This document shows, piece by piece, positions 32,680 through 35,186 of a stretch of 64,000 bases of DNA (positions are counted from its first letter, which is position 1; each line of letters starts with the position of its first letter). The DNA is taken from NCBI RefSeq assembly GCF_003334315.1, contig NZ_QOWR01000008.1. The stretch is one strand, 5' to 3'. The DNA comes from Escherichia coli. Lineage in GTDB: Bacteria > Pseudomonadota > Gammaproteobacteria > Enterobacterales > Enterobacteriaceae. Under the pieces are notes generated by a model. It saw only the letters and a program-made list of their open reading frames with translations. It was not told the origin of the DNA and did not search any database. The position numbers and the translations under genes are program-made.

Positions 32680-33495
32680 ATGTTTTCAATTCAACAACCA
32701 CTACTGGTTTTTAGCGATCTTGATGGCACCCTGCTGGACAGTCATAGTTATGACCGGCAACCGGCTGCCCCCTGGCTCAGCCGTTTACGCGAAGCGAATG
32801 TTCCCGTCATTCTCTGTAGCAGTAAAACTTCAGCGGAAATGCTGTACTTGCAAAAAACGTTGGGGCTACAAGGGTTACCGCTGATTGCCGAAAATGGCGC
32901 AGTGATCCAGCTTGCTGAACAATGGCAGGATATAGACGGTTTTCCACGCATCATCTCAGGTATTAGCCATGGCGAAATCAGCCAGGTTTTAAATACGCTA
33001 CGCGAGAAAGAACATTTTAAATTCACAACTTTTGATGATGTCGACGATGCAACCATCGCCGAATGGACGGGATTAAGCCGTAGCCAGGCGGCGCTGACGC
33101 AGCTTCATGAGGCGTCGGTAACGCTAATCTGGCGCGACAGTGACGAGCGTATGGCACAATTTACCGCTCGTCTGAACGAACTGGGCTTACAGTTTATGCA
33201 AGGTGCGCGCTTCTGGCACGTCCTGGATGCCTCTGCCGGAAAAGATCAGGCTGCCAACTGGATTATCGCGACCTATCAACAATTGTCAGGCAAACGCCCA
33301 ACCACACTTGGCCTGGGCGATGGGCCAAACGATGCGCCCTTACTGGAGGTAATGGATTACGCGGTGATTGTGAAAGGGCTAAACCGTGAAGGGGTGCATC
33401 TGCATGATGAGGATCCGGCCCGCGTCTGGCGAACGCAGCGTGAAGGACCGGAAGGATGGCGTGAAGGGCTGGACCATTTTTTCTCCGCCCGTTAA
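32680..33495 (+). CDS. yedP: HAD-family mannosyl-3-phosphoglycerate phosphatase homologue
   Basis: 271-aa ORF with HAD motif I ([10 protein letters not shown]) and motif III/IV (GDGPND). Confidence 0.92.
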
Positions 33496-35186
33496 GCGTT
33501 ATCGCTCGCGAATACCCGATTACGCCCAGCCTGTTTAGCGAGATAAAGCCGACGGTCGGCCAGTGACTGGAGTTGTTCAAAATCATAATCACCAGTTTCC
33601 TCGCTGCTACTTACCCCCAACGAGGCACTGATGCGTATCGTCGTACTCTTAGCAATCAACATCTCTTTTTCATTTAACTTCAGGCGAATACGTTCTGCGA
33701 CTTCCGCAGCCTCCGTCAGACTCGCGCCTGGCAGAATCACACAAAACTCCTCACCACCGACCCGCCCGGCAACGTCCTGCGCACGCAAGGAACTGCTAAT
33801 TAATCCGGCAGCATGAGAAAGAACACGGTCGCCCGCCTGATGACCAAAGCGGTCATTAATCGCTTTGAAATGGTCAAGATCGACCTGAATGACAGAAAAA
33901 GGATGTTGGTGCGTCTGACACATTTTCGCGAGCGGACGGGCTTTTTCGAACAGTGCGCCACGGTTATATAAACGCGTTAAGGTGTCGTGCCACGCCTGCC
34001 ACTGCAACGAGCTTTGCAGAACATACATGTTGCTAACCATCCAGCGAATCACATACCAGGAGATGAGTAACATGGTGGTAAAGAGCGCCCACAGCAGGGT
34101 TAATGCAATGCTGATACTGCCGAAATCGCCGCGCACGCCTTCGCTTAACGTATGGACGCGCATCAGCACACCGTCGAAATGGTCCAGACGTTCCCAGCTA
34201 ACATAGCGACTGTCCATACGAATGCCGCCCCGCGTGTCATGTTCCATTGCCTGCGCCAGCAAGGCCAGTTCACGAGGATCAAAAATATTCCCTGTTGGAT
34301 GGTCAGGATTGGAAGAGGTCAAAAATCTCAGCTTACTGTCATAGAGCTGATACTCACCATCGAGGTTTTTATCGATGGCGTTTCTTAAAAATTGCTGCAT
34401 GGTACGCACGGGAATACTCATCCCCAGCACGCCATACCAGTAGTTATTACTGTCTACCGGAACACTGACGGTAACCTGCGGTTCAGTATTGCTGGCGTGT
34501 TCCGGTTGCGAAGTGAACCAGCGTACCGCGCGGTGACGATTTTCTCGTTGTGAATGGCCGATAAACCAGGGTTGGGTGACATAGCCGTAATAACGCGTTG
34601 GAACATTGCGCGTAAACAAGGTCGGCTGCGTCGAAACGTAAAATCCGGCACGCGAGACATACATCGCCTGTTCAACCATCGACGAGGAGTTGTGCGCCAG
34701 TCGCAGCAAGTAACCAACTTCCAGTGCAGCGGTAATTTCATTGTCGAGGCTTTCATTTTCGCGAGACAGGAGATTTCCCTCGCTGACTAATGCATCCGAT
34801 ACGCCATTGACTGGCAGGGTGCGTCGTCGGTTGAGTTCGATTTTCCAGGCGTGCTCGTCGCGATGCTGTTCGAACTCGGTTACAGCATCACGCAGAGAGG
34901 TGAAATCCAGTGGCGCTACGAGAGCTTCGCGCATGCCATTACGCAAAAAGATCAGTTTGTCGACGTTATACTGCAAATGCTTATCGAGCGCGTTGGCTAC
35001 GTTTTCCAGATGATTACGCTGGCTGGAGATATAGGCATCTTCCAGCACCACTACTTCACGCCAGGTGAGCAAGGTGGAAAAAAGCAATACCACGATAAAG
35101 CAGAGATTAACGACATGACCAGGCCCCAGGCGGCGTGCGAGTTTTTTCAACCAGCTCTGGTTTTCCATTTTTGTCTCGTGCTGCAC
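33492..35186 (-). CDS. dgcQ: Membrane-anchored diguanylate cyclase (GGDEF domain)
   Basis: GGEEF active-site motif (...[12 protein letters not shown]...) preceded by periplasmic sensor domain and TM segments; start set at GTG ([10 protein letters not shown]...) for 564 aa, ORF-track ATG gives 569 aa. Confidence 0.88.

Follow-up and report, generated by a model that had tools for sequence, protein, structure and literature searches.

The genes yedP and dgcQ of Escherichia coli converge on a single TTAA tetranucleotide in which both of them stop. We suggest that the overlap, 4 nt long and tail-to-tail, is an ordinary case of the YTAR class, formed by two real and unrelated genes whose stop positions have drifted within a very small spacer and whose 3' transcript extensions would be ended by Rho inside the opposite gene. 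In this neutral reading, which as a whole we hold with a probability of roughly 0.7, the overlap would be tolerated as a consequence of gene packing and would serve no regulation. It is also already known, being annotated in public genomes, a member of a common class, and catalogued as a transcript overlap.

Results

Anatomy of the junction

In the 64-kb stretch of E. coli DNA analyzed here (hereafter the window), the sequence cgTTAAgcgt occupies positions 33490-33499. The shared TTAA (33492..33495, both strands) is evident from the window sequence and its open reading frames, and the same overlap is annotated in RefSeq. The gene on the plus strand, yedP (32680..33495), encodes a HAD-IIB mannosyl-3-phosphoglycerate phosphatase-related protein of 271 aa ending in FFSAR (NF002976, PDB 1XVI). 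Its neighbor on the minus strand, dgcQ (also yedQ; 33492..35186), starts with GTG at 35186 and encodes a cellulose-biosynthesis regulator, a diguanylate cyclase of 564 aa ending in FASDNA (NF011955), with a C-terminal GGDEF domain (residues 394-561). The TAA of yedP lies at 33493-33495 (+) and that of dgcQ at 33494-33492 (-); the coding sequences have 4 nt in common (33492-33495) and the stop codons 2 nt (33493-33494). An earlier note on this DNA had described stop codons interlocked in one TTAA with zero intergenic space between the genes, and both its coordinates and its description are correct.

Could one of the two ORF ends be unreal, that is, an artifact of annotation? We ruled this out, and consider its probability negligible. 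The stop codons are unambiguous and fix both 3' ends, many genomes carry these ends in their annotation, and the proteins match their families over their full length: YedP scores 501 bits against the NCBIfam equivalog NF002976 (cutoff 315), end to end, and its residues 1-271 are covered by the solved structure 1XVI (E 2.8e-181), and DgcQ matches the equivalog NF011955 end to end with 1093 bits (cutoff 408). The identical 4-nt overlap is found in the RefSeq annotation of strains K-12 DHB4, HS30-1, and CFT073. Positions 32600-35300 of the window are 100% identical to HS30-1, and this segment was found in 5335 of 5426 complete E. coli genomes.

Two features flank the pair. The intergenic region between dgcQ and yodC (35187-35381) contains a REP-like palindrome (…CACCCGACCGGATGCGACGTGAGCGCCACATCCGGTCGGGTG…) that, through two indels, is 25 nt longer than in K-12 and CFT073; the palindrome has the yodC stop on one side and the dgcQ start on the other, in what is likely the dgcQ promoter region. 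On the yedP side, a recent Footprint-seq preprint places a CRP-type site (aaTGTGAcgcacgTCACCcct) upstream of yedP, in the interval that follows dsrA (window ~32560, MG1655 2025391), a hint of cAMP-CRP control of yedP.

The overlap is not more frequent than expected

Overlaps of the YTAR class arise where protein-coding genes on the two strands run toward each other and both stops fall inside one (C/T)TA(A/G) tetramer. The genes yedP and dgcQ converge in this way, and the TTAA at 33492-33495 holds both of their stops. [quoted passage not shown] Across the 58 species of that survey there are 1890 convergent overlaps, 1218 of them of at least 5 nt and about one third of 4 nt or less, and E. coli has 58. 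Among the 10 annotated convergent pairs of the window, two overlap (yedP/dgcQ by 4 nt and yedA/vsr by 12 nt), and a further four are separated by gaps of <70 nt. With two overlaps in 10 window pairs and 58 in the E. coli genome (PMC2174442), the yedP/dgcQ overlap is not in excess of chance expectation, as far as frequency is judged from the annotated window pairs and the published survey.

The position of the stops varies among genera

We surveyed the junction with a peptide-pattern scan, taking one genome per species, and obtained 33 loci (Salmonella, Citrobacter, and Klebsiella are not among them). All Escherichia lineages surveyed (E. coli, E. albertii, E. whittamii, and unnamed species) have the 4-nt overlap, and the tetramer is TTAA in all except one lineage, which carries CTAA, making the dgcQ stop TAG. 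Within E. coli itself, an exact word of at least 28 nt across the TTAA is present in at least 3971 of 5426 genomes. In Enterobacter, Leclercia, Lelliottia, Silvania, and Huaxiibacter the genes overlap by 16, 19, or 34 nt at most loci, and in Enterobacter sp. BIGb0383 the overlap is again 4 nt. The genes are separated by 7 nt in Franconibacter and by 1 nt in Buttiauxella, and in Mangrovibacter and some Pantoea the yedP and dgcQ homologs lie ~1.2 kb apart. This variety of overlaps (16, 19, and 34 nt) and gaps (1 and 7 nt) rules out selection on TTAA itself.

The spacer, by comparison with the stops, is well kept. The conserved cores GLDHF of YedP and GRN of DgcQ lie 23-43 nt apart in ~20 enterobacterial species, and a near-zero distance between the genes is seen in at least eight genera. 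The C-terminal tails of both proteins are short and variable, and both stops fall within the small core-to-core spacer. Judged from these alignments, the interlocked stop is one state of a labile junction in a tiny spacer, as stop-codon drift would predict. Ordinary protein-level reasons may suffice for the persistence of the stops, since losing either one would lengthen a protein: from the window sequence, YedP would gain 17 codons and DgcQ about 37.

Additional nucleotide conservation of the overlapping 3' ends was looked for in nine Escherichia sequences, and none was seen. The fraction of variable columns is 0.30-0.33 near the junction versus 0.305 overall, and this similarity means that there is no sign of added constraint, such as a selected RNA–RNA interaction would impose.

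Some genomes have lost part of the locus. Coverage of the yedP/dgcQ locus is <80% in ~29 of 5364 genomes. In E. coli strain B2.3 (NZ_CM185023.1, positions 2581-3708 of the surveyed locus L039) the junction is lost to a deletion, and what remains of yedP and dgcQ are two truncated pseudogenes that abut. In Leclercia adecarboxylata NCTC13032 (L035, 3291-4109) the yedP homolog aligns over residues 97-260 only and its frame runs ~100 codons into dgcQ, a pattern suggestive of a frameshift, a pseudogene, or an error in the assembly; in the other Leclercia loci the gene is intact.

No terminator lies between the genes

We searched positions 31000-36800 for intrinsic terminators and found none convincing after either stop: there are nine terminator-like sites, versus 6.5 +/- 2.6 in shuffled sequences, and none of the nine is suitably placed near the stop of yedP or dgcQ. 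The RNA of the 150 nt past each stop folds no better than shuffled sequence (z-scores of -0.12 and +0.18). The statement of the earlier note that the two genes lack a terminator between them is thus borne out by the shuffle comparison and by the folding scores. A bidirectional intrinsic terminator at the junction was also considered and rejected, as there is no GC-rich hairpin with A- or T-tracts near 33492. A structured RNA at the junction was ruled out as well: among known RNA families, only DsrA (32396-32482, -; Rfam score 102.5 bits) was found in 28000-39000, with nothing at the junction. The DsrA terminator hairpin (32398..32422, -) is the first strong intrinsic terminator 3' of dgcQ, ~1.07 kb past its stop. 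Farther along the window, rcsA (+) and dsrB (-) converge with a 43-nt gap, and the mapped 3' end of dsrB (MG1655 2024594, -; window ~31760-31805) is classed as antisense to rcsA, so that there, too, a 3' transcript overlaps a coding region.

Candidate Rho termination of the 3' extensions

Some E. coli convergent genes are packed without a terminator between them, and for such genes the 3' ends must be made inside the neighboring gene, probably by Rho. Both 3' extensions at this locus contain candidate Rho-utilization regions, proposed here from composition. The extension of yedP runs into a C-rich, G-poor tract antisense to dgcQ (33576..33815, +), with a C/G ratio of 1.7-2.15 in 80-nt windows, which places it roughly between the 93rd and 98th percentiles of the background of the window. 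The extension of dgcQ contains another such tract, antisense to the 3' end of yedP (33332..33451, -), with a ratio of 1.6-2.1. Taken together, the excess of C over G in the two tracts ranks roughly between the 90th and 98th percentiles of the window, for which the 90th, 95th, and 99th percentiles of the ratio are 1.55, 1.76, and 2.22. The RNA past each stop is untranslated, C-rich, and G-poor, as Rho substrates are, but antisense strands of coding sequence show this bias in general, which makes it weak evidence. From this composition, and by analogy, we infer that the yedP and dgcQ transcripts probably end by Rho inside the opposite gene.

Published data on bicyclomycin, in which many Rho regions are classed as antisense, contain no significant region at 33332-33815, where coverage is low (PMC7815308). 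The only Rho region of the locus lies inside dgcQ, at 34456..34456 (-; MG1655 2027287, supplementary file 2 of PMC7815308; window coordinates are MG1655 coordinates minus 1992831), with a Rho score of 2.67 and a p-value of 9.4e-5. Without bicyclomycin, 67 reads were counted upstream of this site and 26 downstream in 800-nt windows (PMC7815308). The site is ~730 nt from the dgcQ start, within the coding sequence, which suggests that dgcQ transcription ends prematurely in LB. In published Term-seq data for three growth conditions, no 3' ends are listed in MG1655 2,025,300-2,027,099, an empty stretch between DsrA, just upstream of yedP, and the middle of dgcQ. The lack of discrete ends fits diffuse ends of the Rho type together with low expression; in published data, direct RNA-seq coverage of dgcQ is low, as is expression in LB. 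Within yedP we also noted a promoter-like site on the minus strand (33262-33289; CTGACA, a 16-nt spacer, and GATAAT, 10 of 12 matches) that would drive antisense transcription of yedP; such sites are no commoner in this region than in shuffled sequence.

Discussion

A neutral model and its alternatives

These observations can be brought together in the following model. TTAA would be the state that became fixed in the genus Escherichia among drifting stop positions. Since the genes leave no space for a terminator and none lies close by, each RNA polymerase would enter the antisense strand of the neighboring gene, where the untranslated C-rich, G-poor RNA would be terminated by Rho; for transcripts of the minus strand that escape Rho, the next strong stop would be the terminator of DsrA, ~1.07 kb downstream. 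The expected outcome is weakly expressed mRNAs with complementary 3' ends, of the kind that has been detected by RNA-seq elsewhere.

That the two transcripts overlap at their 3' ends, as the earlier note had proposed, follows from the layout, since every mRNA containing its own stop codon crosses the TTAA. For the same reason, the outcome that the note had named as its refutation, in which both transcripts end short of the 3' end of the other gene, cannot be attained by any full-length translatable mRNA. The overlap is also reported from RNA-seq. In the study describing ExcludonFinder (NAR 2025, PMC12288877), yedP-dgcQ is among the 165 convergent excludons of MG1655, a call that is based on coverage and is made upon detection in at least 50% of 58 MG1655 transcriptomes. 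Lying next to each other on opposite strands, yedP and dgcQ have the arrangement on which this class is defined.

The listing raises the alternative of a functional convergent excludon, in which yedP and dgcQ would become mutually exclusive in expression through head-on transcription or through cuts made by RNase III in their complementary 3' ends. We regard this as unlikely. The study reports that excludon pairs as a class are more syntenic, and less co-expressed in single cells, than other neighboring pairs (PMC12288877), and the tail-to-tail layout, with its core-to-core spacer of 23-43 nt, is retained in ~20 species; it is possible that selection acts on the arrangement, given the spacer kept in at least eight genera and the synteny of excludons, and this is a counterpoint to the neutral reading. 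However, a definition based on coverage takes in every detected pair with overlapping coding sequences, so the listing adds little. The authors of ExcludonFinder themselves state that overlap by read-through is often regarded as noise and that validation by p19 capture of double-stranded RNA is not feasible for convergent pairs (PMC12288877). The length of the overlap varies freely among genera, expression in LB is low, and our literature search found no paper joining yedP and yedQ and nothing specific to this pair that shows reciprocal expression. Antisense interference as a function of the overlap, which the earlier note had raised, is therefore speculation: the 3' ends show no added conservation, the stops drift, Term-seq gives no defined ends, and coverage of dgcQ is low. 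A stronger version, in which selection keeps the near-absent, terminator-free spacer across the eight or more genera and YedP and the cellulose-activating cyclase DgcQ, made mutually exclusive by head-on transcription or by pairing of the 3' ends, form a true conserved excludon in c-di-GMP signaling, seems to us highly improbable.

It could also be that the two transcripts seldom coexist, with dgcQ cut short by Rho and yedP barely expressed, and that complementary ends are too rare to matter. The Rho region inside dgcQ, the few reads around it (67 upstream and 26 downstream; PMC7815308), and the lack of any curated 3' end from Term-seq at this locus under three growth conditions speak for this. 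Yet the overlap was called from RNA-seq in at least half of 58 transcriptomes, according to the ExcludonFinder study (PMC12288877), and any mRNA that gives full-length protein must cross the TTAA. As a separate explanation we consider it quite unlikely; it is, moreover, largely compatible with the neutral gene-packing model and not opposed to it.

If the overlap were regulatory, an uncharacterized HAD phosphatase would be tied to the control of c-di-GMP and cellulose, and no finding here suggests so. The use of the present result is a negative one: the overlap is real, common, annotated, and catalogued, has no signature of extra constraint, and matters little.

Comparison with known convergent pairs

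A solution of a different kind is seen at yodD/dsrA. Like yedP and dgcQ, yodD and dsrA are convergent units with a common 3' end region. In published Term-seq data, the 3' ends of yodD (+) and DsrA (-) lie ~30 nt apart and are mutually antisense, and the hairpin at 32398-32422 appears to work in both directions. Whereas yodD/dsrA has a GC-rich hairpin, U-tracts, and 3' ends mapped on both strands, yedP/dgcQ has no hairpin and no mapped ends.

A likeness is also found in yedA/vsr, the other overlapping convergent pair of the window, in which yedA (36733-37653, +) and vsr (37642-38112, -) share 12 nt (37642-37653) by annotation. (On its other side, vsr overlaps dcm by 20 nt on the same strand, annotated at 38093-38112, in the known dcm-vsr arrangement.) Both pairs are tail-to-tail with a terminator-free junction, and in both the minus-strand transcript enters the antisense strand of its neighbor. 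A strong Rho region on the minus strand (Rho score 10.3), ~350 nt into yedA and antisense to it, is where transcription coming from vsr ends. A region of this strength is documented for yedA/vsr, in contrast to the 3' extensions of yedP/dgcQ, for which none is documented. The excludon study lists yedA-vsr among the convergent excludons of MG1655 as well (PMC12288877).

With the excludons the likeness depends on the definition. The convergent excludons of ExcludonFinder are neighboring genes on opposite strands with overlapping transcription, and yedP-dgcQ is explicitly listed as one (PMC12288877). Classic excludons, such as those of Listeria, differ from yedP-dgcQ in their long antisense UTR and in the reciprocal expression that has been demonstrated for them. 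With the 4-nt YTAR convergent overlaps (TTAA, CTAA, TTAG, and CTAG), finally, there are no differences at all, and yedP/dgcQ is a textbook instance of them.
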